Virus record (IMG/VR): IMGVR_UViG_2531839585_000009
Source: a virus
Lineage: Duplodnaviria > Heunggongvirae > Uroviricota > Caudoviricetes
Strand: one strand, 5' to 3'
DNA length: 15,444 nt
In this document: positions 1-15,444 of the stretch, one piece after another
Layout of the letters: each line of letters opens with the position of its first letter
Position numbering within the stretch: the stretch's first letter is position 1
Program-made: the position numbers and the translations under genes
Notes under the pieces: generated by a model
The model's database searches: none
What the model saw: the letters and a program-made list of their open reading frames with translations, nothing else
What the model was told of the DNA's origin: nothing

Positions 1-1804
1 CACCGTGCCGCTCTGGTCGCCGTCAAAGTGCGCCCCGTTATCCACGATGGCCTCTTTTTCCGGTACATGCTGCACGGCGGTGATGGCATACGTGCCGTCG
101 TCGTTCTCACGGATACTCACGCAGCGGAACAGGCGCTGGCGCACGTCGGCAGCTTCAGCCCCCAACGCTGTATTCAGCAACGCCGTCAGGAACACGGCTC
201 ACTTTCACCTTCACGCCGTCGGTGACGGACTGAACCTCCACGCTGACCGGATCCCTCCGTCAACCAGGCTTATCAGCGTGGTCCGGAGATGGCAGCGTGA
301 TTTCACGGTCGAGCGTCAGCGTCCGGGTCTGGCTGTTCACCGCCAGCACGCGCCCCGGTGCTGATACCGGCATAGTCATCATCGCAGATTTCAATGACAT
401 CGCCCGGTACATGGCGAAGCCCTTCGCACCCACGCTGAATCCACGGTCTGCGTTCCAGCAGTTCGTTTTAATCAGCCACAGCCCGGCGCGGTGTGCCTGC
501 CCCCGGCTGGTACAGCCAAAAGCATCCATCTTCGTGACGTTACGACCGTAACGGGCAATGGCCTGCGTGTCCTCCACAAGCTCTGTCGCCGTCTCCCAGC
601 CGTTATTCGGGTCAATCCAGTTCACCTCAACGGCATTATGGCGGTCCTTCAGGGCGCTGAAGCTGTAGCGGAACGGCGCACCATCATCCGGCATCACCAC
701 ATTACTGCGGTTATAGGTCCACACCTTATCCGACGGTCGGTCCTGCACGAACGTCAGCGTCTGCCCGTTCCATACCGGCATACAGCGCATCGCGAGCAGA
801 AATCACTGAGCACATCCCACGCCTTACGCTGGTGGTCAGAGGCATTACAGGTGATGCGCGGCTCCGTGCCGCCAAACCGTCCGGCACGACTGGTCGCAGT
901 ACTGGCCGATAATACAGCGCCCATTTATCCACATCCCGCACCAAGACGTTTCCCCATGCCGTAGCGCGGATGGGTCAGCATATCCCACAGACACCAGGCC
1001 ATGTTGTTGCTGTATGCGGCTTAAACGTTCCGTCCCAGATACCGCTGTATTGCCGCGTCTGCGGGTTATAGTTCGACGGCACCTGCAGAATACGCCCGCG
1101 CAGATGATAATTACGGCTCACCTGCTGGCTGCCGAACTGCTCCGATCCACCTGACGCCGACCAGTGCCGTGTTCGGGTAGCACTGTTTCACATCGATATT
1201 TCGGTGTATGACGACCAGAGCGTTTTGTTCTGCAGCTGGTCTGTGGTGCTGTCCGGCGTCATTCTGCGCATCCGGATATTAAACGGGCGCGGCGGCAGGT
1301 TATCCACCACCACCGAGGCCAGATACTGGAGTGGTTTTGCCCTTAATGGTGATGTCTTTTTCCGTCACCCAGCCACCTTACGTGTATCTGAACCAGCAGG
1401 CGACTTCCGACGGATTCCGTCCCCCTTTGAGGTGGTTTCCACCAGTGCCTGCACACCGAAGGTAAAGCGCAGACGGTCGATGTTTGCCGACGTGATGGTC
1501 CGGGTAATCGGCGTGTCGTATTTCACTTCCGTACCCAGTACCGTCTCGGAACCTGATGATTCAAATCCCTCCGGCGGTGTCTGTTCCTGCTCACCTGCCC
1601 GGAACACCACCGTGACACCAGAGATGTTAGTATTCCCCTCACTGTCCAGCACCGGTGTACTGTTCAGCAGCACGCTTTTTAATCCATCCACCGGACCTTC
1701 AACCGGCCCTTCGCTGATGGCATCGATCACACTCAGCAACTGCGTGGACTTCAGGTTGTCCTTGCTTCGCGCGGGGTATGCCCCTTACTGCTGCCTTTAC
1801 CCAT
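1..1804 (-). pseudogene. J: Tail tip central fibre / host-specificity protein J (lambda gpJ family); 5' ~1.8 kb only, the gene continues past the window start; frame broken many times
   Basis: ATG at 1804 (GGAG about 12 nt upstream) opens MGKGSSKGHTPREA, the lambda gpJ N-terminus; frame is lost about 15 codons in (GCAAGGAC where GCA-AAG-GAC is expected). ORF 1365..1739 (SVIDAISEGPVEGPVDGLKSVLLNSTPVLD...RLRFTFGVQALVETTSKGD) and ORF 260..790 (NGQTLTFVQDRPSDK...VNWIDPNNGWETATELVEDTQAIARYGRNVTKMDAFG...RVLAVNSQTRTLTLDREITLPS) match gpJ almost residue for residue. No minus-strand ORF of 60 aa or more between 790 and 1365. Confidence 0.85.
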
Positions 1805-1820
1805 TCGTCATGCTCCATAA

Positions 1821-1847
1821 ACGATAAAACCGCCCGGAGGCGGTTTC
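1821..1847 (-). terminator. GC-rich hairpin followed by U-rich tract in the I-J intergenic region (terminator-like attenuator or mRNA processing/stability element)
   Basis: Minus-strand reading AAACCGCC-TCCG-GGCGGTTTT-ATCGTTT: 7-8 bp stem, 4-nt loop, then a U-rich run; lies in the 60-nt gap between the I stop (1865) and the J start (1804). Confidence 0.5.
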
Positions 1848-1864
1848 ACATAAAACATTTTGCA

Positions 1865-2504
1865 TCAGCGACCAATCACCACAACCTGACCACCATCCCC
1901 TTCGTCTGCCGTGCTGATCTCCTGAGAAACCACGCGTGACCCCACGCGCATTTCACCGTACAGAACGGCAGAACATTGCCCTGGGCAACCATGTTATCCA
2001 GTGAGGAGAAATAGGTGTTCTGTTTGCCGTTATCTGTACTGCTGCCGTGGCGTCCTGGCTTTCGGTGCCAGCATCTGCGCCACCCGCCCAGGATCATACT
2101 GGCCCCTGCCGCATACATGCCCGATACAGCCGCGGCACCCAGCCAGCCCACAGGGTTCCACCATGCCACCGCAATCACGCCGCCCCCAGCACCACCTGAA
2201 ACACACCGCCACTTTTAGCTCCCGCCAGACGCGGCACGATTGGATCACGGCACCATTTGCCAGCGGCTCATTAAGACGGGCAGACAATTCGGTTTCACCT
2301 GCATCACGCCCGGCAATGCGTACCTGTACCAGCCGTCGCTCAGTTTCTGACGAAACGCCGGGATCTGCATGGCCAGCGCCCGGATGGCTTCGGCCCCCGT
2401 TTTCACACGAAGGTCGATGCGGCGGCCAAATCGTTGCAAATCCCCGTAAAGGCAGATGCGTGCCATCCCGGTGACGCCAGAGGGAGTGTGTGCGTCGCTG
2501 CCAT
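1865..2504 (-). pseudogene. I: Tail tip assembly protein I (lambda gpI family); frame broken about 5-6 times
   Basis: ATG at 2504 gives MAATHT-PS..; the next frame gives GMARICLYGDLQRFGRRIDLRVKTGAEAIRALA..FRQKLSDGWY (ORF 2245..2466); further pieces QVRIAGRD...GAVI and VAQMLAPKARTPR (in ORF 2030..2872), TDNGKQNTYFSSLDNMVAQGNVLP (ORF 1876..2178) and ISTADEGDGGQVVVIGR-stop sit in different frames. All match lambda gpI. Confidence 0.8.
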
Positions 2505-3144
2505 TTGTCGGTATACCTCTCTCGTTTACTCAGTTGTTCAGGAATATGGTGCAGCAGCTCACCGTCGCCGCAGTAAATGGCGGCATGATTCGGCACCGAT
2601 GAACCAAAACAGCACAGCAGCACATCGCCCGGTTGTGCTGATGACAACGCCACCTGATACAGCCCTGTGGCCTCCAGATTATCCAGATAGAGATTCTGAC
2701 CGTGACGCCACCAGTCATCCCCGCGATGAAAATCCGGCATCTCAATCCCCGCCAGATGATAAGCATCCCGGAACAGCGTGTAACAGTCCGTCACCCCGTG
2801 CTCAAAGCGCCGCCCGGTGAGATGCGGCACACAGCGGAACTTATGAATCTCCCCCGGCAGACCAGCCACCACGGCAAATCACTCTGCACCTGCAGCCGCC
2901 GGTCAGCCTCACTCAGCCAGGGCAGACCACCGGGGTGGCTGTGGACCAGCGCCACAATCTCACCCTGCATCTCTGCCTGCAGCCAGTCCTCCGGCGACAT
3001 CCGGAAATACGCCTCCGGCTCACCGGAGATATTCACGCAGGGAAAATATCTTTCCCCCTCCGGCGTTCTCACCACGAAGCCGCACGATTCCGCTGGCGCA
3101 CATCGCCGGGCGTGCGCCAGAATCGCTGATTCTGTCTGTGTCAT
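2403..3144 (-). pseudogene. K: Tail tip assembly protein K (lambda gpK family; N-terminal JAMM/MPN domain, C-terminal NlpC/P60-like domain); at least 2 frameshifts
   Basis: ATG at 3144: MTQTESAILAHARRCAPAESCGFVVRTPEGERYFPCVNISGEPEAYFRMSPEDWLQAEMQGEIVALVHSHPGGLPWLSEADRRLQVQSDLPWWLVCRG (JAMM motif HSHPGG...SEAD present). Frame is lost at about 2850 (CGGGGGAGATTCAT, one base short); the continuation EIHKFRCVPHLTGRRFEHGVTDCYTLFRDAY...DKWQRRTHSLWRHR is in ORF 2030..2872; a second break at about 2530 (GGG where GGGG is needed) precedes the C-terminus ...ASAFTGI.NDL.AASTFV-stop at 2403. The 3' ~100 nt overlaps the start of I in another frame. Confidence 0.85.
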
Positions 3145-3148
3145 GGGA

Positions 3149-3819
3149 TTACTGCGAAAGTTTGTTAATGGAAAGGAAGCCGCCAAAGTTGCCGACGTTA
3201 TTGCGAAACTTACAGCCCTCAGGCATTTGCTGCATTTATCCTTCGTGATATCGGACGTGGCTGGTCATATTCATCGCGACAGCCGGACCGATAACCGCAC
3301 TCTCACCGCGATAGGTCCAGGTGCAGGTGTTGGCCAGCATGATCGCCCGGAAAAACAGCCCTCCGTTTCCGTCGGGTGGAAGACAAAGAGGCACTACCGC
3401 CTCAGTTCGCTCACTGCTCATGCGCCAGCGGCTGATCACCTCCTGCTCCGGATCGGCTCTGTTTCCGTTGACGAAGTTCACCGCATCCAGAAAACGGGCG
3501 TAAACCTTACGCCGACCACCGTTCCGCCGACCAGACTCTGCATCTTCCGCCATCCCGGTGACCATCCGTCAGGTTAGAACCGTCAGTGTCGGACGGGCAG
3601 CACTGCCCTTCCGTTCAGTTCAAATCCCGTCCCCTGAATGGGGTATGCCTGATACTGCCGCCCCTGCCAGGTGACCGGCTCACCTTTTTCGTTCTGCTCA
3701 TTACAGAAAAAATAACGTTCACCACCGACCTCTGTCAGATCGATTTCCCAGAGCACCACCTGGGCTGACTGAGTAAGGCGTGTCGTCTCATGATGTGTTT
3801 CCTGTGGAATATCCTGCAT
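3149..3819 (-). pseudogene. L: Tail tip protein L (lambda gpL family, Fe-S cluster-binding cysteine motif); at least 3 frameshifts
   Basis: ATG at 3819: MQDIPQETHHETTRLTQSAQVVLWEIDLTEVGGERYFFCNEQNEKGEPVTWQGRQYQAYPIQGTGFELNG (ORF 3583..3819); then MVTGMAEDA...RKVYARFLDAVNFVNGN..ADPEQEVISRW...IMLANTCTWTYRG (ORF 3236..3565, itself drifting in and out of frame); the C-terminus DKCSKCL / EGCKFRNNVGNFGGFLSINKLSQ-stop (TAA 3149..3151) is split across two frames. Confidence 0.85.
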
Positions 3820-3828
3820 CAGGGCCTC

Positions 3829-4156
3829 CTATGCCACGACCTGTTCAAAATCTGCCGTTATGGTTACCCACAGCGCCCCCACGCTTGCCGACCATTTACG
3901 ACAAACCACCCTGATCGGCTTCCAGTCATAAGGTGGCGTCCACTGAAATGCCGGACGCCACCGTGCCGTTCCAGAAAGGCTTTCAAAGATGGGTGTCACA
4001 TTTACGAACACGTATCGTCACGCTGTAAGTCGACAACTGGTTATTCAGTCCCGCCGCACGACGCTGTTCATAACCATCGCCCAGCTTCACTGTCACCACT
4101 TTCGGCTCTGATACCACATTCATATCCGGGCGCACTTTCCAGTGAAACGTCTCCAT
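3829..4156 (-). pseudogene. M: Tail tip protein M (lambda gpM family); 2-3 frameshifts
   Basis: ATG at 4156 overlaps the H stop (TAATG). Frame 1 METFHWKVRPDMNVVSEPKVVTVKLGDGYEQRRAAGLNNQLSTYSVTIRV then stop; a second frame gives LKAFLERHGGV; a third gives AFQWTPPYDWKPIRVVCRKWSASVGALWVTITADFEQVVA-stop (ORF 3829..4011). All match lambda gpM; the span is 328 nt, not a multiple of 3. Confidence 0.8.
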
Positions 4157-7100
4157 TACCGATATGCTCCACTTAACCGACCACCATCACGGGCCTGCTG
4201 TTGCATAAAGTCCGCTGCCGCTTTTTTCCCAAGGTCATAAACCACCTTCAGGGCAGCCGGACCTATCTGCCCGTTCGTGCCATCGTTATTGATCTCGATG
4301 TTGTACTGCGGGGAAACATCGCCATACCTGACCCCAATATCCGCCACAACCCCCAGCTTACCGTCAGCACCACGACGCAGTGGCAGAATGGCTTCAGGTC
4401 CAGCTTCCCCCATCACACCCGCGCCTTTTGCAAAAGCAAAAAACGTCGGACGGTTAACCACCGTGCCACTGTAGCGACTCAAATCAGCCGACTGATAAAC
4501 ACCGCCATCAGCATTGGCTACAAAATCAAAAGGCAGCGCGGAAGCAATACCTTTTACCGCTTTCATTAAAGCTATCTGAGCCATGATTCTGGACATATCT
4601 GACAGCACAGAAGAGGTGAAGGATTTGAAATTGAGTTTGCCTGTAGTACAGAATGTCGCCAGCCAGTCACTCATGCTACTGAACGCAGACGTGAACAACT
4701 GTTCCACTGTCCCGGCTGTGTTATCCGCTTTCTCAGTGACATTCTGGAGTGCACGCAGGACTCCGTTTTTCCAGTTACCCTGCACAACTTCAAGCTGTTG
4801 CCAATAACGGCGATTCTCATTCAGTTGTCGGTTCAGGCTCTCCGTCAGCGCCTGCTCGGCCTTTCTGTAGTCATCCGTGTTATATGTCCCTTTCTGCTCA
4901 CTATCCCGCCTCAACTGCTCCAGCTGTTGCTGGTATTTCTGGCGAAGACTCAGTTGTACCTGATATCGCTGTCGCTGCTGATCACCCATACCCACCGTGG
5001 CGATATCCAGGTCATGTTGCTGACGCTGAGCGCGCTCTTCTTCAGCCAGTTGACTGGTCAGCTGAATTGTTTTTTTCTTCAGATCGTTGAGTGCCGTCTG
5101 TTTCTGAAGCTCCTGCTGTTTTACATCCAGCAGCGTCAGTGCCTGAATCAGTTCATCTTTACGGGCCAGCACACTCTTTTCATCTGCCGTCAGTTTTTTC
5201 CCGTCCAGATCGCTGATGCGCTGCTGCAGAGCCAGAAGCTGTTTATGCGCTTCTGTCATCCTTCGTGGCAATGCCTGCTGACTGTCTGCAGCAGCAATCT
5301 GTCCTTCCACCTGTGCCTGTTGCTGACTGTACTGCAGCAATAACCGGGTGGCCTCATCATTACGGGTTTCGCGTGTTTTTTTCTTACCGGATGCCAGGGC
5401 TTTCTCGTAACGTTCATTTTCACGTTGTATCGCCGCATCCCTGACAGCCTGATCGGCGTACTGCATGGCATTAATACGCGCAATTTCACGCTGATGTCGT
5501 GCTGCTTCCGTTTCATTCATCCGGTTCAGTGCAGCATTTTCAGCATTACGGCGTTTCTGTTGCTCCTGATAATTCCGCTCTGCCTGCTCTTTTGCATCCT
5601 GCAAATCCTTCTGGCGTTTTTTCTCCTGAAGCTCGTTAAGACGCTGCTGATCGTACTCAACCTGAGAAGATGATGCCGTCCAGGGGAGTCTTTTCGCCCG
5701 CGACACTTTCTCCTGTAAAGCGGCAATCTGTTCATCCAGCGAGTCTTCACGACCAATATTCATGGCCGCATCCCAGAAACGACTCCACAAATCAGACAGA
5801 TACTTCAGCGTACTGCCAAGCGCATTGAGGTTATTATCAATATCCGCAGTACGCCGACCGGTTTCCTCTGCCAGTGCAGACATGGCTATCCGTGCAGCAT
5901 CACTGGACCGCCCCTGCTCCCCAAGGACGCGTATCTGCTCAAGCTGAGTGGCAGTAAGAAAATGCAGCTCATTGTCCAGAGCCTTCGCGGCATTTACAGG
6001 ATCATCCTTCAGCCGCTTAAACTGATTTATGGTATCGCTGACCGACTGGCCAACCGATCGCTCCATCTGTGCGGCAACTCTCGCCACCATACCGATATCG
6101 TTTCCACGAAATGCACCACTCCCCACCACCTGAGCCAGCGCACCGGCTGCAGCATGTTGCGTGATACCATTCCCGGAAATAGCACGACTGAGCGTCCACA
6201 GCTGCCCGGCAGTGACTCCGGCATAATGCCCCGTCAGCGACAGCTGGCGGTTAAATTCTTCCCCCTCCTTCTGACCGTCATACCAGGCTTTACCCAGACC
6301 ATAGACAGCCGCGGCAATACCGCCAATAACCCCGCCAAGCATCATGCCTTTCGGTGACATCAATGTGTCTATCCACCCGGCACGGTTAGCCAGCGTTATT
6401 CCGGATCCCCTCAGCGCACCTAAATTGCCGCGGGCCAGTTCACCTATCAGAACGCCTATCTCCTGACGGGCCGCTGCACTTTTCAGACCCAGCGAATGCG
6501 TTGCTTTTCCTGCCTGCTCCATTTTGCGGATATACACTTCTGCAGCACTGCTTACCCCCAGCTGGGCAGCCTTAGCACGAAGCAACTCAGAAGAAGAAAG
6601 ATTCTGGCGGGTTGCCTGCTCTTTAAGCTGACGGATAAACGCCACTTTCTGTCGGGTAGCCTCTTCCTCAGCCTGTGTAAGAACACGGGTTTTCGCCGTA
6701 ACCTCAGAAATCAGCGCCAGATAATCCTGCTGACCAATCCCGCCACTGTTTCTGGCCTGTCGGATCTGCTGCTGAATACGCTGTAATTCCTGCAGCCCCG
6801 CACTGGCCTGTTTCACACTGTCAATCTGACGATAAAACGCAGCAGCCGCTTTATCCTGAGCCTCTGCCAGAGCCATGGCCTGCGCCTGTTCATCGCGCAT
6901 TTTCTGGCTCAGCGCCTCCATGCGCTGGCGGGTTTTCTCCACCTCGCGGGCCATGCGTTCATGAGCCTGTGCGTTCTTCTCCACCGTCTGCGCATGGACG
7001 GATGCGGCTGTTGCAGCCGAAGAAGCTGCCTGCGTTGTCTGCCGGGCGGCCTGAGTCTGACGCTCCATAAAACGCTGCATACGGGCAGAAGACCGTTCTG

Positions 7101-7206
7101 CATCGCTGGCTGCACCATTCAGAAGGTTTTTGATACGGGGAATTTCATTTTTAAACTCTGCCGCATCAATCCCCAAATCAATGACCAGGTTGGCTATCTG
7201 GTCCAT
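4156..7206 (-). CDS. H: Tail tape measure protein (lambda gpH family), intact, about 1016 aa
   Basis: Uninterrupted ORF. Likely start is ATG 7206 (MDQIANLVIDLGIDAAEF, compare lambda H MAEPVGDLVVDLSLDAARF) with GGAGGTG 6 nt upstream; the ORF track's upstream TTG at 7236 is less likely. Central Q/A/R/E-rich coiled-coil region; C-terminus INNDGTNGQIGPAALKVVYDLGKKAAADFMQQQARDGGRLSGAYR matches the lambda H C-terminus closely. Confidence 0.9.
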   Translation of the reverse strand: MDQIANLVIDLGIDAAEFKNEIPRIKNLLNGAASDAERSSARMQRFMERQTQAARQTTQAASSAATAASVHAQTVEKNAQAHERMAREVEKTRQRMEALSQKMRDEQAQAMALAEAQDKAAAAFYRQIDSVKQASAGLQELQRIQQQIRQARNSGGIGQQDYLALISEVTAKTRVLTQAEEEATRQKVAFIRQLKEQATRQNLSSSELLRAKAAQLGVSSAAEVYIRKMEQAGKATHSLGLKSAAARQEIGVLIGELARGNLGALRGSGITLANRAGWIDTLMSPKGMMLGGVIGGIAAAVYGLGKAWYDGQKEGEEFNRQLSLTGHYAGVTAGQLWTLSRAISGNGITQHAAAGALAQVVGSGAFRGNDIGMVARVAAQMERSVGQSVSDTINQFKRLKDDPVNAAKALDNELHFLTATQLEQIRVLGEQGRSSDAARIAMSALAEETGRRTADIDNNLNALGSTLKYLSDLWSRFWDAAMNIGREDSLDEQIAALQEKVSRAKRLPWTASSSQVEYDQQRLNELQEKKRQKDLQDAKEQAERNYQEQQKRRNAENAALNRMNETEAARHQREIARINAMQYADQAVRDAAIQRENERYEKALASGKKKTRETRNDEATRLLLQYSQQQAQVEGQIAAADSQQALPRRMTEAHKQLLALQQRISDLDGKKLTADEKSVLARKDELIQALTLLDVKQQELQKQTALNDLKKKTIQLTSQLAEEERAQRQQHDLDIATVGMGDQQRQRYQVQLSLRQKYQQQLEQLRRDSEQKGTYNTDDYRKAEQALTESLNRQLNENRRYWQQLEVVQGNWKNGVLRALQNVTEKADNTAGTVEQLFTSAFSSMSDWLATFCTTGKLNFKSFTSSVLSDMSRIMAQIALMKAVKGIASALPFDFVANADGGVYQSADLSRYSGTVVNRPTFFAFAKGAGVMGEAGPEAILPLRRGADGKLGVVADIGVRYGDVSPQYNIEINNDGTNGQIGPAALKVVYDLGKKAAADFMQQQARDGGRLSGAYR

Positions 7207-7905
7207 AACGCACACCTCCGGAAATACCTTCTCCAAGATGCATCAGTTCTTCGTCCGTTCGCTCCGGTATCCCGTTCTCTTCCGGTAAAAGGCTGAAATC
7301 AGCCACCGCAGCATCACTGCTGCCGGACACCATTCTCACGATCAATGCCTTCAGCGAGGCAAACTGCGCATCCATCCACACATCACTGAAGCTCTGCATC
7401 CGGAAATAATCGCCCCACTCACCAAGCTCAGTGGCCGACATTTCCGACAGCATCCGCCGCCAGTCTGCCCGCCGGAACTCCCGGGCAAGCCGCATGACAA
7501 ACTGCATTTCCCGCGTCAGGACTTTTCCGGCGTCAGCACCTCATGCTCCAAATCCCCGGCATTCTCAATGGCTCCCATACCGCTCAGCGACAGAACCATC
7601 TCCGCCCCCGCTCCCAGGGCATCATACGACCATGTTGTAATAACGGATGCGCAAAGCGTCTCAACATCCTGAGACTGTTCCGCATTCCACAGTGAGCGGG
7701 AAACCAGCCAGGCATTGATATCCATCCCCATCCGCAGAAAAGCAATCTGTCGTTCAGCCTCCGGCAGTTCTCCCTCTTCGGCATCAAACTTTGCCGTTCG
7801 CTGCTGAACAAACGCCAGATATTCAATTCTCTGCAGCCCGGACAGCTCACTGAGCACCACGGACTGTTTTTCATAATTAAACGTGCCCTGTTTCAGAAAC
7901 ATCAT
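7178..7905 (-). CDS. GT: Tail assembly chaperone G-T fusion, predicted to be made by programmed -1 ribosomal frameshifting near the 3' end of G
   Basis: The -1 frame relative to G opens at a TGA only about 10 codons before the G stop and continues for about 115 codons (..AGKVLTREMQFVMRLAREF...GPDSQPGH-stop at 7178); the candidate shift site GGAAAAG (7521..7527) sits 2 codons before the G stop, the same arrangement as lambda G/T. No independent strong RBS for T. Confidence 0.6.
7516..7905 (-). CDS. G: Tail assembly chaperone G (lambda gpG family)
   Basis: ATG-ATG at 7905/7902 preceded by GGTGGAG; MMFLKQGTFNYEKQSVVLSELSGLQRIEYLA resembles lambda gpG (MFLK...LSELSALQRIEHLA); ends ...LTPEKS-stop (TGA 7516..7518); position between V and H. 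Confidence 0.85.
   Translation of the reverse strand: MMFLKQGTFNYEKQSVVLSELSGLQRIEYLAFVQQRTAKFDAEEGELPEAERQIAFLRMGMDINAWLVSRSLWNAEQSQDVETLCASVITTWSYDALGAGAEMVLSLSGMGAIENAGDLEHEVLTPEKS
7521..7527 (-). other. Candidate -1 frameshift slippery heptamer GGAAAAG (one-base variant of the lambda G GGA AAG site)
   Basis: Zero-frame codons CCG GAA AAG TCC TGA; -1 frame GCC GGA AAA GTC...; A-site slip AAG to AAA is canonical, P-site re-pairing GAA to GGA is imperfect. Confidence 0.45.
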
Positions 7906-7918
7906 GTTCTCCACCTGC

Positions 7919-7942
7919 AAAAAAGCCCCGGATAACCGGGGC
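7919..7942 (-). terminator. Intrinsic (rho-independent) terminator immediately downstream of major tail protein gene V
   Basis: Minus-strand reading GCCCCGG-TTAT-CCGGGGC followed by TTTTTT: perfect 7-bp GC-rich stem, 4-nt loop, 6-U tract; lies in the 57-nt gap between the V stop (7963) and the G start (7905). Confidence 0.75.
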
Positions 7943-7962
7943 AAATGATGAGTATCGTCCTG

Positions 7963-8702
7963 TTAACCTGCGGCGCTGACAGCCACCGCAGCCACGGCCA
8001 CAAAATCGCCGTCAGAAGTCATGCCCACAATGCTGACACTGCCCTGCTTCACGCCTTTCACCGTGGCCACAAGCCCGTTCAGGGTCACCGTGGCAGTCTG
8101 TGGATCTGTCGAATGCACACTGATCGCTTTGTCACTGGCTCCGTCAGGTTTTACTGTAAAGGTCAGCGTGGTGGTTGCTCCCACTTTTACACTGGCAGAT
8201 GCCGGTGCCACCGTCAGCCCGGTAACGCCCACGGTTTCAGTGCCTTCCTCTGCCAGATACGGACGCCCCACACCGCTGATTTTCACGGTGCGGGTCATCA
8301 CGTCTTTTGAGGCAATGGTTTTACCCAGTGAACTCAGCCAGCCACGGAAAACATCAACAGTACCGTTGGGATATTTGATACGAAACGCGCAGACTTCACC
8401 GGAGTCGAACAACTGAACCAGTTTTTTCTGCCCGCTGTCACCCGGACGCCAGGCCAGCGTCGCCGAAGTATCACCGACGGATTTCTGCCCCTGGGTTGTC
8501 GTTTTCCAGTCTGCATCTTCATCATCGAGATAAGTGTCATCTTCTGCATCAGCGGTCATTTCGCCAGGTTGCAGATCCTTCACCATCGCAAGACGCACCA
8601 GTCAGTGTCCGAAAAGGGTTCGCAAACGCATCGCCTTGCCGGTTACATCCAGAACGTCGTTCCCGCACCTTTCGTTTTTGCCAGTGGATTTGGTGTGGTC
8701 AT
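7963..8702 (-). pseudogene. V: Major tail tube protein V (lambda gpV family) with C-terminal Ig-like (Big_2-type) domain; the first ~100 nt carry about 4 single-base deletions, the remaining 211 codons are intact
   Basis: ATG 8702 with AAGGAGGTG 5 nt upstream: MTTPNPLAKTKGAGTTFWM then in-frame TAA; the pieces TGK, DAFANPF, PFSDTDW and RLAMVKDLQPGEMTADAEDDTYLDDEDADW lie in alternating frames and together reconstruct the lambda gpV N-terminus. ORF 7963..8598 continues ...YPNGTVDVFRGWLSSLGK...RTVKISGVGRP... and ends with an Ig-like segment (LTVAPASASVKVGATTTLTFTVKPDGASDKAISVHSTDPQTATVT...). Confidence 0.85.
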
Positions 8703-8712
8703 TACCACCTCC

Positions 8713-9126
8713 TTAATTCGTGTACGTGATCTGGTACGTGATTTCCGCCATCGCCCAGGTGGCCATCTCATTATCACGTTGATAGTTAAAACCGAGTGGG
8801 ATCAGGGTGTCGATGAGTCCGGAAAGTGCCGGTATATCATTCAGGGCCGGGAAAATGGTGCTCTCCATCCACATATCCAGCTCTGAATCCGGTGCCTGTG
8901 CCCGGATGAAGACAGCAATATGCAGAACAGCCTGCCAGTCATCTTCATCCGTCATTTTTCCGGTGTACTGAGCATCACTCAGCCACACTGCCACGGCAGG
9001 CAGTTCCTGCGCATCAACAAATGCCGGAAGCCCGTCAAAAAACGTGGCGCTGTCTCCACACTGTTCCCGAAGGCGTGCTAGTACGGCCTGGCGGATTTGT
9101 GTATGTCGGTTCATCGGGTCAGCCAT
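8713..9126 (-). CDS. U: Tail terminator protein U (lambda gpU family)
   Basis: Intact ORF; ...ATFFDGLPAFVDAQELPAVAVWLSDAQYTGK...WQAVLHIAVFIRAQAPDSELDMWMESTIFPALNDIPALSGLIDTL...YQITYTN aligns with lambda gpU (ATFFDGRPAVFDEADFPAVAVYLTGAEYTGE...PDSELDAWMESRIYPVMSDIPALSDLITSM...YVITYEM). Start could be ATG 9126 or ATG 9114. Confidence 0.85.
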   Translation of the reverse strand: MADPMNRHTQIRQAVLARLREQCGDSATFFDGLPAFVDAQELPAVAVWLSDAQYTGKMTDEDDWQAVLHIAVFIRAQAPDSELDMWMESTIFPALNDIPALSGLIDTLIPLGFNYQRDNEMATWAMAEITYQITYTN

Positions 9127-9689
9127 AACCTCAGTTGTTGTTTCAGTGCATACCCCAGCTGTTTCGGCATTTCCGCAGCAATAATGCGGTCGCGGGCATC
9201 TTCAAATGCTTGTGTCAGCGGTCCGGACAGCGGGACTTTCACCACATCAATGGGGTAACGATTTTTGCCATCAATACGCCGCATCACATGCCAGCGACCA
9301 TTCGCCAGTTGCTGAATAAACGCATCCCGGAAAAGATATTTACCCACCTTCAGCACACTGCCACGGTACTGCAGTTTTCCACCACGCCGGGCCAGTCTGA
9401 CCCGGGCTGTCCCCAGCTTAATAGCGGGCAGATTGCCCCGGTTAACGCGGATCCTGGCCGTCATTTTTCCTGACGGACTGGCTTTAAACACCCGGACACG
9501 CTGACGTACCAGTTTCAGGGGGATCCCTTTCACCTGGTTATCTCCCGCAACGGTATTCCCGGCAACCTGCCGGGTGGCGACCGAGACCGCTTTCTGTGCC
9601 ACACGGTTTATCGCCCATGCGCTGGCCTGTGGCACCATACGGGTATCAAGGCTGTTCAGATTACGGATGGCATTCTCAAGCCCCTTCAT
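9111..9689 (-). CDS. Z: Tail completion protein Z (lambda gpZ-like by position and size, 192 aa)
   Basis: Intact 192-aa ORF, ATG 9689 preceded by AGAGGTG; basic, Arg-rich; sits between the FII-like gene and U exactly as lambda Z does and overlaps U by 16 nt. Identity is inferred mainly from synteny and length. Confidence 0.7.
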   Translation of the reverse strand: MKGLENAIRNLNSLDTRMVPQASAWAINRVAQKAVSVATRQVAGNTVAGDNQVKGIPLKLVRQRVRVFKASPSGKMTARIRVNRGNLPAIKLGTARVRLARRGGKLQYRGSVLKVGKYLFRDAFIQQLANGRWHVMRRIDGKNRYPIDVVKVPLSGPLTQAFEDARDRIIAAEMPKQLGYALKQQLRLWLTR

Positions 9690-9700
9690 CCCACACCTCT

Positions 9701-9976
9701 TTACTCAATAAAGATCATTGGCTTACCGTTAAAGCGTTCATGCCGTGTGACCGTCCATTGTTGTCCGTCATAAACAACGCGATCCCCGCGCCGTGGGCGG
9801 TATCCCGAAGAAAACACCACCAGAGATACCGCAGGTCCGGACAGAGCATTCAGCTCTGCCAGTGTTTCTCCCGGGATCACAGTCATATCGGCATCATTAA
9901 TCGAGGCTGTCTTTCCCATCTTTCTGACCGTGATCGCATCCATACGCGCTGCCAGCCGGGAAAAGGGATCAGACAT
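9701..9976 (-). CDS. Head-tail joining protein (lambda gpFII-like)
   Basis: Intact 91-aa ORF; PFSRLAARMDAITVRKMGKTASI...VSLVVFSSGYRPRRGDRVVYDGQQWTVTRHE parallels lambda FII (...AIARADETIRGYMGTSATI...PSLFVRTDEVRQLRRGDTLTIGEENFWVDRV); overlaps the upstream gene by 8 nt. Confidence 0.6.
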   Translation of the reverse strand: MSDPFSRLAARMDAITVRKMGKTASINDADMTVIPGETLAELNALSGPAVSLVVFSSGYRPRRGDRVVYDGQQWTVTRHERFNGKPMIFIE

Positions 9977-10292
9977 TGAGTTTTACCGGCACTTCTTCTG
10001 CACTGGTTCCGGCATCTGCCCAGACAACCCCGACCAGCGGATCAGAGCCGCTGTTAGTCAGCTGAACTTTTCCGGACTTCAGATAAACCTTCTTACCCGT
10101 TTTCATGTCATCCGTTTTCAGCTTAGGCAGCATAAACACACCTTCGGTCATGCCGTCGCCTGTTTCACCCTGTGGAATATCGGTCAGCGCCACCGCAAAA
10201 ACATCACCCACCTGCACCAGATCTCCGCTGCTGATGGCTGCACTGGCAACAATCGCCACCGTTTTTCCTTCTTCTACAAAATTCTTTGCCAT
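9969..10292 (-). CDS. DUF2190-like small phage head protein (possible decoration/cement protein)
   Basis: Start most likely ATG 10292 (MAKNFVEEGKTVAIVASAAISSGDLVQVGDVFAVALTDIPQGETGDGMTEGVFMLPK...KVYLKSGKVQLT..) with GGAGA 6 nt upstream; the ORF-track extension to 10337 would run through the terminator hairpin. Family assignment is from memory of the motif pattern, not a search. Confidence 0.5.
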   Translation of the reverse strand: MAKNFVEEGKTVAIVASAAISSGDLVQVGDVFAVALTDIPQGETGDGMTEGVFMLPKLKTDDMKTGKKVYLKSGKVQLTNSGSDPLVGVVWADAGTSAEEVPVKLNV

Positions 10293-10305
10293 AACTGTCT
10301 CCGCA

Positions 10306-10324
10306 CAGCCCCGTTCAGGGGCTG
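10306..10324 (-). other. Second stem-loop abutting the Shine-Dalgarno sequence of the DUF2190-like gene
   Basis: Plus-strand CAGCCCC-GTTCA-GGGGCTG (7-bp perfect stem); on the minus strand it ends 3 nt before the GGAGA RBS; no U-tract follows. Confidence 0.4.
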
Positions 10325-10335
10325 ATTTCAGGTAC

Positions 10336-10355
10336 AAAAAAAGCCCTTACGGGCC
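10336..10355 (-). terminator. Intrinsic terminator immediately downstream of the protease/capsid gene
   Basis: Minus-strand reading GGCCC-GTAA-GGGC followed by TTTTTTT: GC stem with GNRA-type tetraloop and a 7-U tract, 23 nt after the capsid stop codon (10379..10381). Confidence 0.7.
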
Positions 10356-10378
10356 ATCAGAGTTGTTGTCTGCGACGT

Positions 10379-12334
10379 TTACGCCGTACATTTCACCAGA
10401 CCGCGGTGATCAACTGGCGCGACACCGGCGTCAATACGCACTTTCGTTGTCACGCCATCCACACTGAAGCCCTCCATCTGATCAATATATGGCGTATCCA
10501 CACCGTTGAGATAAGCCACTTCAATCGTATCGGAGCCTTTTGACGCAGCCAGGTAGAAGGTGGTCAGGCTGTTATCATCAAGACGAGGCTCTGCAATAAC
10601 GGTCGCAAAATCTTTCACCGGGTTAATAATACCGGCGTTAATGTCAGCCCCCTTGACACTTGAGGAGCGAATGACCTGGTTAGCAACAGACTCCATCGCC
10701 GTCGGTACCAGTACGAACGCAGGACGAATATTCAGATGACGCTCCCCCTCTTTCTGAACGCGCATCAACTGGCGGGCTTTATCCAGCGATGCCACGTCCA
10801 TTGCAGCGCTCTCCAGTACGTTTGCATGTTTCGCTTTATCGAACAGACTTACATTATCTGTGGAGATTTTCGGGTTAGACGTCAGAATGGCATAAACCAG
10901 ATCGGCAATAGTGGATTTCGCCGCACGGCCCAGCTTCATCGGGACATCGGTCAGCATATTCAGATCATCATTGATAATGGCCTGACGGGTGATACTGAAC
11001 AGCTCGCCATAGGTCGCCAGTGCAATAGTGGCCTGTTTATCTCCGGTGGTGACGTATTTATATTCCGCCCCTTCACGCACCTGACGCAGAGCACTGAAGC
11101 CCCCCATACCCACACGATGGGCAATTTTAAAATCAGACAACTGACCTTTCCGCGTCCACTGTTCATAGGTTTCAGGGGCATCTTCCCAGCCCTGCAGAAT
11201 GGCTTTGTTCGCAACATCCAGCAGAATATTACCGAAGTCAGACGTACTGTGTGTGAACGCCGCACCGACCATCTGCATCGGGTTATAACTGGAAACCCCA
11301 ATACCCCGTTCAGTCAGTGACATACGGGCATATTCACGCAGGGTCATCCCGTTGTAGACATTATCACGTTCGGTTTTTTCAAATCCGGCACGCGCCATCA
11401 GCGCCTGGCGGATCCCGTCCCCCACAAAATTACCGTTACCGGCATAAATATGAGCCGGGGTATTTTTATTGGATGGCGTGGACTCGCGCCCCATCTCGTT
11501 CAACAGCTTTTCGCGGGCCTGCTCCAGCGAACATTCAGGATCGGCAAGACACTGAGCCTGCAGCGTCTGATAACGCCCGCCAAACATGGCAAACAGATCA
11601 TTAATACCGTTTACACGCGCTTTTTGCTCTGCCAGTACCTGCGCACGGATACTGTTTTCATCCACCACGGGTGCTGCTGCCTGCACTGGCGTCCGGGAAG
11701 CTGCAGGTTCATTATCCTGTACGCGTGGAGCACTGTTGCGTGGCGGAGTAATCATGTTTCGAATGGATTCCGGCATCTTTTTAAATTCCTCTGTACGTTT
11801 TGACTGAATACATGCCATTGCCTTAACGGCTGGCGTCACCTGATCAGCAAATCCCTGTGCCAGACATTCGGCACCGGACATCCAGGTCTCATCCGCCAGC
11901 ATGGCAGCAATTTCATCGGTGGTTTTCCCGGTTTTCTGTGCATAAGCGGGTAACAGAACCGCCTCAACTTATCGAGCAGGTCGGCATAGGTGCGCATGTC
12001 CTCCGCATCACCGCCCGTAAAGCCAAATGGTTTATGAATCATCATGAAGGTGTTTTCCGGCATAATGACCGGTTTCCCACCATCGCAATGACCGACGCCA
12101 TTGAGCCGCCACACCGTCGACATAAACGGTAATGGACGCACCATGTGTTTTCAGCGCATTAAAAATGGCGATGCCTTCAAAGACATCGCCACCCGGTGAA
12201 TTGATATGGAGATTAATGTGGGTGATATCGCCCAGTGCATTCAGATCACTGATAAACTGCTTCGCTGTAACCCCCCAGAAACCAATCTCGTCATAAATAT
12301 AAATATCCGCGTCACTCTGGTGACCAGCCTGCAT
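10379..12334 (-). pseudogene. Fused prohead protease (ClpP / S14-like) - linker - major capsid protein (HK97-fold); protease part broken by at least 3 single-base deletions, capsid part (507 codons, 10379..11902) intact
   Basis: Protease pieces: DIYIYDEIGFWGV...INSPGGDVFEGIAIFNALKTHGASITVYVDGVAA (ORF 12032..12439), then SMASVIAM in the third frame (catalytic Ser context), then GKPVIMPENTFMMIHKPFGFTGGDAEDMRTYADLLDKL (ORF 11836..12144; MIHxP His motif), then the capsid frame from EAVLLPAYAQKTGKTTDEIAAMLADETW onward. Putative start ATG 12334 (weak RBS, uncertain). Confidence 0.8.
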
Positions 12335-12380
12335 CCTGAACCAGGAATTATTCTTCGGACTGGTCGTCGGTGTACTGCGG

Positions 12381-13852
12381 CTACTGTCGTTTCGTTGCGG
12401 CACTGCTGCCTCCTTTATCACTGGCCGGATCGGTATCAAATACTAGGTCCAGCTTGCGGTTTTCATCAATTTCGGCCTTGCGCCGACGTTTGACATCATC
12501 CGGATTACGACCACCTGCACGTACCCAGTCTGATTCTGTCGCCGCTCCACCACGAATCTGGATTTTCCAGGCCTCAGCCTCCTTAACAGGATCAATCCAC
12601 GGCATCACCGGTCCGGAATACACCGCGGTATACAGTGAAGAACGGTCAAGATCGCGGGGTAGCCTGATAACACCGGATGCCACAGCCTGTTTCAGCCAGG
12701 CACGATACATCGGGCGGGTGACGGCACCAATAAACCAGTCCTGCAGGATCAGGTAGCCATCAGTGGATTCAACCAGCTCCTGACGCTGGGCGCTGTAAGT
12801 GCCGTTATAGTTGCGCGCTGTACTGGAAAAACTCAGACGACTGCCCGCCGCCACGGCACGCAACTGACCATTACGAAAAGTTTCAAGGTTAGGATTGGGG
12901 CGATCCGACTTCACCATTCCGATTTCTTCGCCGGGTTTCAGATCGTCGTAAATAATGCCTGGCTGAATGGTAAGCTCGCGTTCCTTATCCTTGCTGCCAT
13001 TACCATCCGTTTCATAGCTCTGTCCGTCGCCTTTGCGGATGTACATCCCCAGAGCAGCGGCGACCCTTGCTGCAGTCAGCTCAGAATCTTCATACTCTTT
13101 CAGGGCGCTGAGGCGGATCAGCACACCGGACAATAAAGACGTCCCGCGCATCTGGTGCAGACGGCGAACAAATTTAAGATGCAGCATTCGCTCTGCATCC
13201 ACTTCTTTGGTTTCCATCTGCCGTCCGGATACAGGACGACTTTTATACACCAGATATTTTTCGGGACGCCCCCAGTCATCAACAAACACGCCCTGATTCA
13301 GCCTGTTGCTCTCATCACTGGTCATGGGAATAAAGTCCGGCTCGAGCGCCTCCAGCCAGAAATGAACACCGGCAGAAGGCGTCAGGCTGTTTATGCGCCC
13401 GGAAACCATCTGGGCAAACACCTCACCATCGCGCAGCCAGGTACGCAGCATCAGACGTTCCAGCATCGGACGGGTAAACTGCCCGGTGACTCCGGCTGAC
13501 AGACCATTCACTCCATCGGGTCGATCTCCGCTGCCAGATCACGGGCAATGGCCCCATTGCGTAATACCGGATGTGGCTCGACAATAATCCCGTTTTTCCC
13601 CACCACCCGTTCTTCCAGCTTGTCAAATACACCAATAACCAGATCGTGGTTGTTATCAAGGTAACGGGCCTGCTCACGTAACGACACGGCCCCGTACTGG
13701 CTTAGCTGGTCGGCAGTTCGGTTCTCCCGTCGGGCTTTGTGTGTCCGCGTCGTTTTTACGGCTTCATAAGCCTGGATCACCGCACGGGAACGCAGCCTTG
13801 CCGCTTTCCATCCAGGTGAAAAAACGCCAATCACATCATCAAGAATTGCCAT
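12381..13852 (-). pseudogene. Portal protein (lambda-type portal family); one frameshift near 13510
   Basis: ATG 13852 overlaps the W stop (TGATG), GAGG about 8 nt upstream: MAILDDVIGVFSPGWKAARLRSRAVIQAYEAVKTTRTHKARRENRTADQLSQYGAVSLREQARYLDNNHDLVIGVFDKLEERVVGKNG... runs to a stop at 13508; the remaining 376 codons (ORF 12381..13511) continue in another frame. Total span 1472 nt, not a multiple of 3. Placement between W and the protease/capsid gene and the size (about 490 aa) fit a portal. Confidence 0.8.
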
Positions 13853-14064
13853 CAGAACCTCGCCAGCCGGTACCCGGGATGCCCCCGTCGTCGTGTAATC
13901 AGAGCCGCAAGGCGGCGCTCCCACTCCTGCCGTCCCTGTCGGATCTCAGATAAGTTTTCCATTGTCATCTGCTGACCATTAAAGGTGACGGATTTTCCGT
14001 CCAGCACCGCCATTTCAGCTTCCGTATAACGCTGAATCATGGCTTCGATATCATTCTGGTTCAT
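13852..14064 (-). CDS. W: Head-tail joining protein W-like (lambda gpW family)
   Basis: Small intact ORF between terminase and portal; ...LDGKSVTFNGQQMTMENLSEIRQGRQEWERRLAAL..RRRG resembles lambda gpW (...[50 protein letters not shown]). GGAGG lies 6 nt before the second ATG (14064), so that is the more likely start than 14070. Confidence 0.7.
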   Translation of the reverse strand: MNQNDIEAMIQRYTEAEMAVLDGKSVTFNGQQMTMENLSEIRQGRQEWERRLAALITRRRGHPGYRLARF

Positions 14065-15444
14065 AACCATCCTCCGGAAGTCAGCCAGGGGTTAACATCG
14101 TCAGTTACTGTTTTCTTCCGTTTTTGTTTTTTAACAGGCGTGGATACCGGTTCCGGTGAGGGTGACGGTTCGGTACTGTCCGGGACACACTCCAGCCAGG
14201 TTTCCCGGCTCGCCCACTCCGGTGCATCCGGCCAGCGGATCTTTTCGTATCCATGCAGAATGACCAGAGCCTCGGCATACACCATCAGGTCAAAAGCTTC
14301 GTTGGCACCGCGACCCGGCTTACTCCATTTCCCGTCACTGCTCCGCTCTTCATACGTCAGTTCGTCGTAAAACCAGCTCCCCAGCCAGTCAGGGAAATGC
14401 ACATAGCCGGGACCTGGCGAGTCACGCCATAACGCGTTATTCACCCGTCTTTCAGGGCATCCGTCTGAAGAAGCCAGAGCGGCACATCACCTGCGGCCTG
14501 CGCCCGTCGGCCCGTTCGTCCGGTGTTATCAGGGAATGTACGGGTGATCAGTTTTGCGCGCCGGATGCTGTCGCCCTTAAACAGGTAAATACGTTTACCA
14601 AGGCCATCACGACGGCAACGACGCCAGAATTTATAGGCATTATCAGTGACCCCGTCTTCACCGCCGGAGTCCACCGCCATTGCCATCAGTCGCATTTGTT
14701 GAGAAGGATCGGAGGCCAGCGGCCAGCTTTTATGAAAAACATCCGTCAGCAGGACATCCCAGTCTTCCGGATAGCTGGCCGGATCAATTCGCTGGCTCTC
14801 CCCGTCGCTGTCACCGCGCAATGACTGCGTGATGTTGTAACGATCAATAATCCAGCGTTCGCCACGGCTGCCATAGCCCGTTACCTGAACCACAAAACGG
14901 CGATGACGTCCCGCCTGCACATCCACTGTCGCCACAAGGAAATTAACGCCATCCGGCACACTGCGGGAAGGAACTGGCTCTGCCCGCTGCTCAAGCAATT
15001 CACTTTTTCGTTGCTCCATGCTGGCACGAGGAAGATAAGGCAATCCCCAGTCGGTGTTGATAACCGCCCTGAGTGTTTCTTCGCTTCCTGTCGCTTCATA
15101 CTCCTGTTCTGCAGTCAGTAATTTGTAAACCAGTTGCGCCCAGGTCTGATACGCAGCAGCTGGCCCTTCCATCCAGAAACTGGCGATACGGGAGCGGCGC
15201 GGTTCACCGGAAACGTTGCCGTTACGATCAATGACCTGCCCTTCACGCAACCAGACTCCTGCACTATTGAGCTCACGCTTTTTCTCCGCAGTGATAATGC
15301 CGCTGCAGTGCGGGCAAAGTAGATACGCCGCCTCACTGGCTTTGTAACCGGCTCATTTAAACCGTCTGGTCTGTTTCCTCCGGCTCTACAAAAATAATGT
15401 CCATCATTTTTAATGGACACTATCGTATGAAACACCGGACCTGG
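14061..15444 (-). pseudogene. A: Terminase large subunit (lambda gpA / Terminase_GpA family), C-terminal ~460 codons; 5' end lies beyond the window end; at least 2 frameshifts
   Basis: Three consecutive frames: 15444 to about 15365; about 15365 to 14441 (..LCPHCSGIITAEKK...FLVATVDVQAGRHRRFVVQVTGYGSRGERWIIDRYNI...MAMAVDSGGEDGV..., compare lambda gpA ACPHCGEEQ / YLTAGIDSQLDRYEMRVWGWGPGEESWLIDRQII / ICWDTGGIDP); 14444 to 14061 (..GPGYVHFPDW...ANEAFDLMVYAEALV, compare lambda PGAVHFPNN...RNEALDCFVYALAAL). The 14441 junction reads GACGGGTGAAT where one extra G would restore ..KD.VNNALW. Confidence 0.85.

Follow-up and report, generated by a model that had tools for sequence, protein, structure and literature searches.

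The window, a 15,444-nucleotide stretch of DNA from a virus of the Caudoviricetes (IMG/VR record IMGVR_UViG_2531839585_000009), carries in the part considered here a block of tail genes, all of which lie on the minus strand. Read in that direction, the first is a V-like major tail protein gene, the C-terminal 211 amino acids of which stand in one frame (7963..8598; Pfam Phage_TTP_12 and Big_2), while its 5' part is frameshifted in the window and tblastn splits V over two frames. At the other end lies the tape measure gene H (4156..7206, 1016 amino acids; Pfam TMP_2, Tape_meas_lam_C, and TMP_4; start taken from the mapped PGAP annotation). These two genes flank the G and T pair, in a gene order collinear with that of phage cdtI, and the start of H overlaps the end of T. 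V and G are separated by a terminator-like hairpin evident in the sequence (GCCCCGG-TTAT-CCGGGGC followed by a T run, 7919..7942), and a rho-independent terminator is annotated at the equivalent place in mEp460, Ayreon, and N15. Gene G, encoding a tail assembly chaperone, occupies 7516..7905, with 129 amino acids from the ATG at 7905 (the PGAP start is the ATG at 7902) to a TGA at 7518..7516. Its identity is plain: the product matches Pfam PF06894 Phage_TAC_2 with E = 1.8e-39 and the equivalog NCBIfam TIGR01674 phage_lambda_G with 190.7 bits against a cut-off of 74.45, and RefSeq genomes of E. coli label it gpG. That of T is equally so; its segment (7178..7525), which begins with the AAA of the shift heptamer described below and runs in the -1 frame to a TGA at 7180..7178, encodes a peptide that matches the equivalog NCBIfam TIGR01715 phage_lam_T with 136.8 bits against a cut-off of 77.35, as well as Pfam PF06223 Phage_tail_T.

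The arrangement of the frames is restrictive. T is in the -1 frame relative to G, the 3' end of which reads, in frame, GAG GTG CTG ACG CCG GAA AAG TCC TGA. Because the -1 frame has a stop (TGA, 7543..7541) and is open only from 7540, the computed overlap of G and T spans a mere 25 nt (7516..7540), and this is the sole stretch in which a -1 shift can join the two. It holds 8 sense codons in the -1 frame and offers 7 zero-frame codons as possible shift points; an earlier note on this DNA was thus right about a short overlap, if somewhat generous in putting it at about 10 codons. No X_XXY_YYZ heptamer occurs within these 25 nt. The only codon in the overlap with cognate -1 re-pairing is AAG, which becomes AAA, and it lies within the heptamer G_GAA_AAG at 7522..7528, where GAA (Glu) would stand in the P site and AAG (Lys) in the A site before the shift, and GGA and AAA after it; the final four bases form an A_AAG tetramer in the G frame (7525..7522). 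The earlier note had singled out this same GGAAAAG as the only heptamer present before the G stop, with A-site slippage from AAG to AAA, and the frame layout bears it out in both respects, although the coordinates given there (7521..7527) were one base off. It had also called P-site re-pairing from GAA to GGA imperfect, correctly so, given the central G.U against the tRNA-Glu anticodon. With its anticodon 3'-CUS-5', E. coli tRNA-Glu on GGA gives G:C, central G.U, and A:S. The bare GGAAAAG string is not in itself remarkable, as the window holds 5 copies where 2.1 would be expected, a count equalled or exceeded in 8 of 200 shuffles, which is not significant. The minus-strand copies at 6504..6510 and 10067..10073 read GGA_AAA_G in their gene frames, out of slip register. 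The significance of the heptamer rests on its frame, its position, and its conservation; the string count is uninformative.

The site is most simply read as the programmed -1 frameshift site of a lambda-type tail chaperone pair, a reading to which a probability of about 0.85 may be assigned. From the layout and the comparisons below we infer that the shift occurs at this site, that its frequency is low, and that G and GT have lambda-like roles. The predicted GT fusion, join(7905..7522, 7522..7178) on the minus strand, would comprise 128 + 114 = 242 amino acids with the junction ...LTPEK|VLTREMQFVMRLAREF....

The closest textbook counterpart is the G/G-T programmed -1 frameshift of lambda at G_GGA_AAG (Levin, Hendrix & Casjens 1993), which the summary in PMC5009743 gives with a G:GT ratio of about 30:1. 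Like the window, lambda has homologous G (TIGR01674) and T (TIGR01715) genes in the order V-G-T-H, a shift site placed identically with respect to the T domain, and an A-site move from AAG to AAA by tRNA-Lys. By this analogy the fusion would be expected at a low level here as well; no conserved RNA structure was found for the site in the window. There are also differences. Position 3 of the heptamer is G in lambda and A here; consequently the P-site change in lambda, from GGA (Gly) to GGG, is one of the wobble position, whereas that in the window, from GAA (Glu) to GGA, creates a second-position G.U. The lambda overlap measures 64 nt against 25 nt, and the T of the window is shorter and does not have lambda's C-terminal duplication. 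The homologous position holds GGGAAAG in lambda, phage 21, and the Stx phages, AAAAAAG in VT1-Sakai, and CCCAAAA in Vibrio HY01.

GGAAAAG itself is already known as a -1 slippery sequence. In the N15 record (NC_001901) the misc_feature at 10027..10033, described as "slippery sequence for -1 translational frameshift", reads GGAAAAG, as do the bases under the same slippery-sequence annotation at 10194..10200 of the phi80 record (FN582354), and the record of phage LLS names a "minus-one programmed translational frameshift site GGAAAAG"; all three give joined G-T coding sequences. Genes 14/15 of N15, 14/G-T of phi80, and 11/12 of LLS thus carry the heptamer of the window at the same position within the same protein families. 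They differ in that their T proteins are only 41-45% identical to that of the window, in that the G stop stands 5 codons past the heptamer and not 1, and in that no Shine-Dalgarno (SD)-like element is found 6-17 nt upstream. Given that N15, phi80, and LLS, all accepted members of the group, also lack a canonical X_XXY_YYZ, such a heptamer is typical of lambda-type G/G-T sites and not required. No published measurement of a fusion protein or of a frameshift frequency was found for G-T sites of the GGAAAAG type. Pattern-based prediction has met this type of sequence as well: the "twofour" motif of PRFect, one of eight backward motifs, was drawn from annotated tail-assembly-chaperone frameshifts that lack XXXYYY (McNair et al. 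2024, PMC10885494), and GGAAAA fits what its name implies, two identical bases and then four, although as the motif is presented there the class is defined by pattern on actinobacteriophage annotations and not by experimental testing.

Alignment of the T domains of ten diverse phages (alignment A1) was used to fetch 78 loci from species-representative genomes, and a script laid out the frames and candidate sites in each of them. There are 62 distinct contexts, from 20 or more enterobacterial genera, that have GGAAAAG at the homologous position; among them all seven of its columns are 100% conserved, against 32 to 96% for the 30 columns to either side. The T proteins of these genera are only 41-66% identical to that of the window, and in all loci the -1-frame AAA (Lys) of the heptamer is the first aligned residue of T. 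The phages and named prophages with GGAAAAG at this position include Salmonella Gifsy-2, phi80, N15, LLS, mEp043, Klebsiella Kp4865-4, Enterobacter Ravinvirus, and Providencia PSTCR8lys; further prophages that carry it come from Citrobacter, Kosakonia, Symbiopectobacterium, Leclercia, Serratia, Proteus, Kluyvera, Atlantibacter, and Klebsiella, and from Entomohabitans, Trabulsiella, Yokenella, Pseudocitrobacter, Superficieibacter, Phytobacter, Sodalis, and Pluralibacter. Other forms are fewer: GGGAAAG in 9 distinct contexts (lambda, phage 21, Stx phages, E. albertii, and Edwardsiella), GGTAAAG in 4 (Pantoea), GGCAAAA in 2 (Kluyvera and Ewingella), AGAAAAG in 2 (Morganella), and one context each of GGGAAAA (Providencia rustigianii), AAAAAAG (VT1-Sakai), CCCAAAA (Vibrio HY01), and AAAAAAC (a Saccharibacteria metagenome-assembled genome). 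Where GGGAAAG turns up in unexpected hosts, the locus is in many cases lambda itself, on a short contig that is sometimes labelled low coverage. The family-wide invariant part is A_AAR only, mostly after GG.

The comparison of related G-T junctions that the earlier note had proposed thus places the heptamer at the homologous position throughout the GGAAAAG contexts, and it favors that note's suggestion of a natural variant: the sequence is fully conserved in 62 contexts and annotated as slippery in N15, phi80, and LLS. That the variant slips less efficiently and so sets the G:GT ratio, as the note also suggested, is a hypothesis. Calling GGGAAAG "canonical", as was done there, holds for lambda only, since GGAAAAG is the commonest form, and lambda's GGGAAAG a minority form, in this query-biased sample. 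In a midpoint-rooted neighbor-joining tree of T, which has no support values and shares the bias of the sample, the lambda GGGAAAG clade is nested within GGAAAAG lineages. Because of these two limits, GGAAAAG as the ancestral or majority form is a lead only, and the broader proposition that it, and not GGGAAAG, is both the ancestral and the commonest lambda-type G-T shift site in Enterobacterales is at present rather doubtful on these comparisons.

A frameshift would be superfluous in this lineage if T were made alone from its own start. An ATG at 7505..7507 does lie 8 nt past the G stop with a 109-codon open reading frame behind it, and PGAP and the mEp460 and cdtI records begin "T" (109 amino acids) there. 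However, the codon aligned with this ATG (alignment A2) is CTG, CTT, CGC, or CGT, that is Leu or Arg, in every relative outside the lineage, and these relatives have no other start before the conserved ELxF..LAREF motif; an independent T start shared by relatives, which the earlier note would have counted against recoding, is thus not what the alignment holds. Further, T-frame conservation and the TIGR01715 match both set in before the ATG is reached: K1, E6, and F9 of the T peptide are invariant in alignment A1, conservation of the frame begins at the heptamer Lys, and the profile match begins at residue 6 of the T segment, one residue before the Met. The G frame past the heptamer, by comparison, reaches a stop after 0, 1, or 5 codons and its sequence is not conserved. 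The only upstream SD sequence is a weak GGGA 2 nt from the ATG, and an independent start would in addition leave the invariant heptamer unexplained. Independent synthesis of T is accordingly very improbable; there is no conserved independent start for T, and the ATG at 7507 is lineage-specific and probably not a real one.

Likewise, the possibility that GGAAAAG is a base-call error or a recent mutation of GGGAAAG, with a true G at position 3 of the heptamer, can be set against abundant population data. The idea of "another base-call error" arose in the earlier note because the window has many small deletions outside G-T, and the lesions are indeed numerous. Relative to cdtI there are 78 gap openings, 77 of which are deletions of 1-2 nt in the window, and the coding sequences of portal, V, M, L, K, and I are each broken across two or three frames. 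In a test stretch of gene L, the best match among 5,426 complete genomes has 579 nt where the window has 551 (95.2%), with almost no substitutions and 28 bases absent from the window. Yet these lesions are all deletions and not substitutions, and none falls within 7150..7960. A 46-nt probe across junction and heptamer matches 1819 complete E. coli records, in 1815 of them with 100% identity, and the same junction is carried by 80 of 80 IMG/VR loci returned for the T domain, all of them near-identical to the window and thus a measure of population depth and not of diversity. Of 5426 complete E. coli genomes, 1848 contain the 811-nt G-T region, and its alignment with one E. coli chromosome sets 811 bases against 811 at 99.9%. 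Among phages, 17 records match the region with an identity of 97.8-99.5%, mEp460, cdtI, Ayreon, phi458, and Tritos among them; viable, plaque-forming phages carry the heptamer. Distant genera, as well as N15 and phi80, retain it. Since some 1,800 independent complete E. coli genomes, and viable phages as well, share the junction, and the heptamer is kept across genera, the chance of an erroneous or freshly mutated base is negligible: the heptamer is not a base-call error.

The same lesions bear on whether the site is a relic in this particular copy, such that the prophage is defective and G-T recoding currently functionless here. The splitting of portal, V, M, L, K, and I relative to cdtI speaks for this, and because these genes are frameshifted in the window the copy may not be expressed. 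Against it, G, T, and H are intact, and the lesions consist almost purely of 1-2 nt deletions with near-zero substitutions, which in the tested stretch are shared by no complete genome. The pattern looks more like assembly error than decay, and a relic is a fairly unlikely reading.

If the site is a programmed one, the question of what stimulates it follows. Single-sequence folds of the 62 and 109 nt downstream were no better than shuffles (z -0.92 and -0.22), and RNAalifold across 27 diverse GGAAAAG loci gave a consensus of -1.42 kcal/mol with 4 pairs and neither covariation nor compensatory changes; on these fold scores and this consensus a conserved downstream stimulatory hairpin was rejected. 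An Rfam scan of 7150..8000 returned no family, only a single chance lncRNA match (E = 0.84). Upstream, an SD-like GAGGTG at 7537..7542 is a candidate stimulator; GAGG lies at a gap of 11 nt from the site and AGGTG at a gap of 9 nt. Both fall within the 6-17 nt that Sharma et al. (2014) used on experimental grounds as the operational range of SD-like elements (PMC4066793). The anti-SD duplex energy is -9.2 kcal/mol for GAGGTG and -5.8 kcal/mol for the GAGGCG allele that is common among near-identical prophages. An SD-like element, at least GAGG, is present in 9 of 9 contexts of the window's lineage; outside it the figure is 14 of 43 GGAAAAG contexts against 17% at random in-frame positions within these G genes, in samples that are phylogenetically non-independent. 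The Pantoea GGTAAAG sites all have a strong GGGGAGGA or GGGAGGA (4 of 4), and an SD-like element is also found in Sodalis. In the 6-17 nt range of the phi80 and N15 groups it is absent. Consequently, an upstream SD as a universal stimulator was rejected and the element stays a lineage-specific candidate, its distribution being suggestive of lineage-specific tuning of the shift site.

In the proposed mechanism, most ribosomes would translate G to its stop, whereas a small fraction, once GAA and AAG have been decoded, would slip by -1 at G_GAA_AAG and read on through T to yield the 242-amino-acid fusion, ...TPEK-VLTRE.... The driver would be tRNA-Lys (anticodon mnm5s2UUU), which passes from AAG to the fully cognate AAA, while tRNA-Glu on GGA would keep two Watson-Crick pairs and a central G.U, or else good re-pairing in the P site would be unnecessary. 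The next codon after the shift would be GUC, giving ...TPEK-VLTREMQ.... By analogy with lambda, the tape measure protein H would be coated by G and GT, with the T part recruiting the major tail protein. The heptamer itself would be a long-standing form of the site, kept by selection, rather than a damaged copy of GGGAAAG.

How well such a heptamer slips has been addressed in other settings. Against the frameshift reading, as does the want of a conserved downstream structure, speaks a minimal in vitro system in which G_GAA_AAG gave mainly the zero-frame product and served as an "unfavourable", "less slippery" control (PMC6924986). In its favor, among dnaX variants a P-site change from A.U to G.U costs about 5 kJ/mol, partly offset by the favorable A-site change from G.S to A.S, and variants with first-position mismatches still shifted at 8-9% (PMC6787027). 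The dnaX site of E. coli (SD-like element, A_AAA_AAG, and hairpin) resembles that of the window in that tRNA-Lys slips, or here would slip, on AAG and an SD-like sequence, here GAGGTG, stands upstream; the window differs from it in the P-site codon, in having no downstream hairpin, and in an SD-like element that is not conserved in the family. Given that lambda needs only about 1 GT per 30 G, a weak site may be enough, or its context may help.

Whether both tRNAs take part is a separate matter. The same product could arise if only tRNA-Lys slipped, in the A site of a Z_ZZN tetramer or in the P site while the next zero-frame codon waits, in which case the preceding GG would matter little for re-pairing. 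A_AAG is the most shift-prone tetramer in E. coli, and some insertion elements of the IS1 and IS3 families make use of Z_ZZN tetramers of this A_AAG class (Sharma et al. 2014, PMC4066793), a precedent for slippage by tRNA-Lys alone. These sites and that of the window are alike in that A_AAG to AAA is the only fully cognate re-pairing. Further in favor of this route, A_AAR is the only invariant part of the family sites, the preceding codon being GAA, GGA, GUA, GCA, AAA, or CCA; the A_GAA_AAG of Morganella has two P-site mismatches; and the G stop follows directly on the heptamer in 7 of 62 GGAAAAG contexts as well as in the GGCAAAA, AGAAAAG, and GGGAAAA forms. The zero-frame codon after the heptamer is UCC in the window and a stop codon in several relatives. 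On the other side, tetramers alone are near background in the absence of a stimulator, A_AAG in vivo giving 0.147% against a background of 0.112% and rising to 5.6% with a pseudoknot (PMC4066793); the characterised tetramer sites rely on a downstream stimulator, whereas the window has none that is conserved and its P-site codon keeps two of three pairs. Moreover, nearly all members have GG at positions 1-2, which keeps first-position pairing (G with C36) for P-site codons that start with G, and this near-universal GG therefore fits a contribution by the P-site tRNA. Slippage by tRNA-Lys alone is a possibility to be entertained, if tentatively. The tandem route, with both tRNAs, and the single route yield an identical protein, and the assignment of the heptamer as the frameshift site is common to both.

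Slippage of RNA polymerase on the A run, which would make an mRNA that fuses G to T, is the last alternative. Productive slippage of this kind needs 7-9 or more A. The heptamer offers four consecutive A and nothing more, far below that length; besides, an mRNA joining G to the -1 frame would need one extra nucleotide, and what is conserved, A_AAG, is tied to the reading frame. The likelihood of this origin is slight in the extreme, and translational frameshifting at G_GAA_AAG stands as the preferred account.

In light of the N15, phi80, and LLS records, the site is the annotated form of a textbook recoding site, and the only gap is one of annotation in the mEp460/cdtI lineage, of which the window is a member. 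The mEp460 and cdtI records, as well as PGAP in E. coli genomes, treat G and T as separate genes with T beginning at the ATG at 7507, and about 1,800 complete E. coli genomes with this type of prophage carry no ribosomal-slippage join for G/T. Pipelines that seek just XXXYYYZ will go on missing the site. What retains interest is that, on the sequences compared, a heptamer regarded as poorly slippery is selected across a large phage family and no conserved stimulator is evident. Were GGAAAAG indeed the ancestral and commonest form, the essential frameshift of the G-T family would normally use a heptamer with a second-position P-site mismatch, one regarded as "unfavourable" in minimal in vitro systems. 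Either slippage of a single tRNA-Lys would then suffice for the G:GT ratio, with help in certain lineages from an SD-like element upstream or from a stop codon next to the site, or an unrecognised stimulator, such as the nascent G peptide, would be at work. More broadly, the sequence that mechanistic studies have taken as a "non-slippery" control is a natural, selected site in this family, and it offers a ready natural system for asking how much P-site re-pairing low-level -1 frameshifting in bacteria needs.

G_GAA_AAG, the shift site at 7522..7528 (-) near the end of G, is one of several non-canonical G-T shift sites of lambda-type tail assembly chaperone genes; others occupy the homologous position in further G-T loci collected for comparison. 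In Pantoea (L062, L064, L065 and L082) the site reads G_GTA_AAG, and a strong GGGGAGGA or GGGAGGA invariably stands roughly 9 nt before it; in Morganella (L029, L030) it reads A_GAA_AAG, with two P-site mismatches. Kluyvera and Ewingella (L025, L027) carry G_GCA_AAA and Providencia rustigianii (L063) carries G_GGA_AAA, in each case with the G stop codon directly after. The window also holds a canonical-looking GGGAAAT at 7506..7512 (-), just 3' of the G stop, but by frame arithmetic its X_XXY_YYZ register lies in the third frame only, that of neither G nor T; being in the wrong frame and past the G stop, it is unable to serve the G-T shift.

Annotation of this prophage type, whether by PGAP or in the records of the related phages mEp460 and cdtI, contains no ribosomal-slippage join and treats 'tail assembly protein T' as a separate 109-amino-acid gene in its own right. 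The annotated start is the ATG at 7505..7507 (-) and, across some 1,800 E. coli genomes in RefSeq, its counterpart; this ATG is a lineage-specific Leu-to-Met change.

Among the collected loci, lambda-like G-T sequence was also observed on short contigs (genome_contigs; L068-L074, L076-L080 and L088-L092), some with a low-coverage label, from assemblies labeled Neobacillus, Oceanobacillus, Kitasatospora, Pseudomonas, Shewanella, Leeuwenhoekiella, Enterococcus, Paenibacillus, Tardiphaga, Pseudoxanthomonas and others. Most are identical to phage lambda in both T-alignment score and junction context, and they almost certainly represent contamination of the assemblies with phage lambda DNA.

Alignment of the window with cdtI opens 78 gaps, 77 of them deletions of 1-2 nt on the window side, spanning 143..14446 and clustered at 13490-13523, 11967-12104, 8597-8643, 3951-3996, 3217-3620, 1966-2851 and 143-1763. 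The coding sequences of portal, V, M, L, K and I each fall across two or three frames. In gene L, a 551-nt piece of the window pairs with 579 nt in the best of the complete E. coli genomes, with almost no substitutions. The pattern looks more like an unpolished, deletion-prone assembly than natural decay. In the tape measure gene H, however paired, two sets of gaps (5288 with 5263, and 4331 with 4316) total 3 nt each and keep the frame, and therefore may be real variation.

Among near-identical prophages (L001, L002, L017-L023 and L095-L174), the SD-like element that precedes the shift site, at 7537..7542 (-), exists as two alleles: GAGGTG, which encodes Val in G and has an anti-SD duplex energy of -9.2 kcal/mol, versus GAGGCG, which encodes Ala, at -5.8 kcal/mol. 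This dimorphism could tune shift frequency. Further upstream, between the major tail protein gene V and G, lies a strong terminator-like hairpin (GCCCCGG TTAT CCGGGGC, then TTTTTT; 7919..7942, (-)), and the mEp460, Ayreon and N15 records annotate a rho-independent terminator at the equivalent place. Such a hairpin would reduce transcription of G, T and H relative to V.
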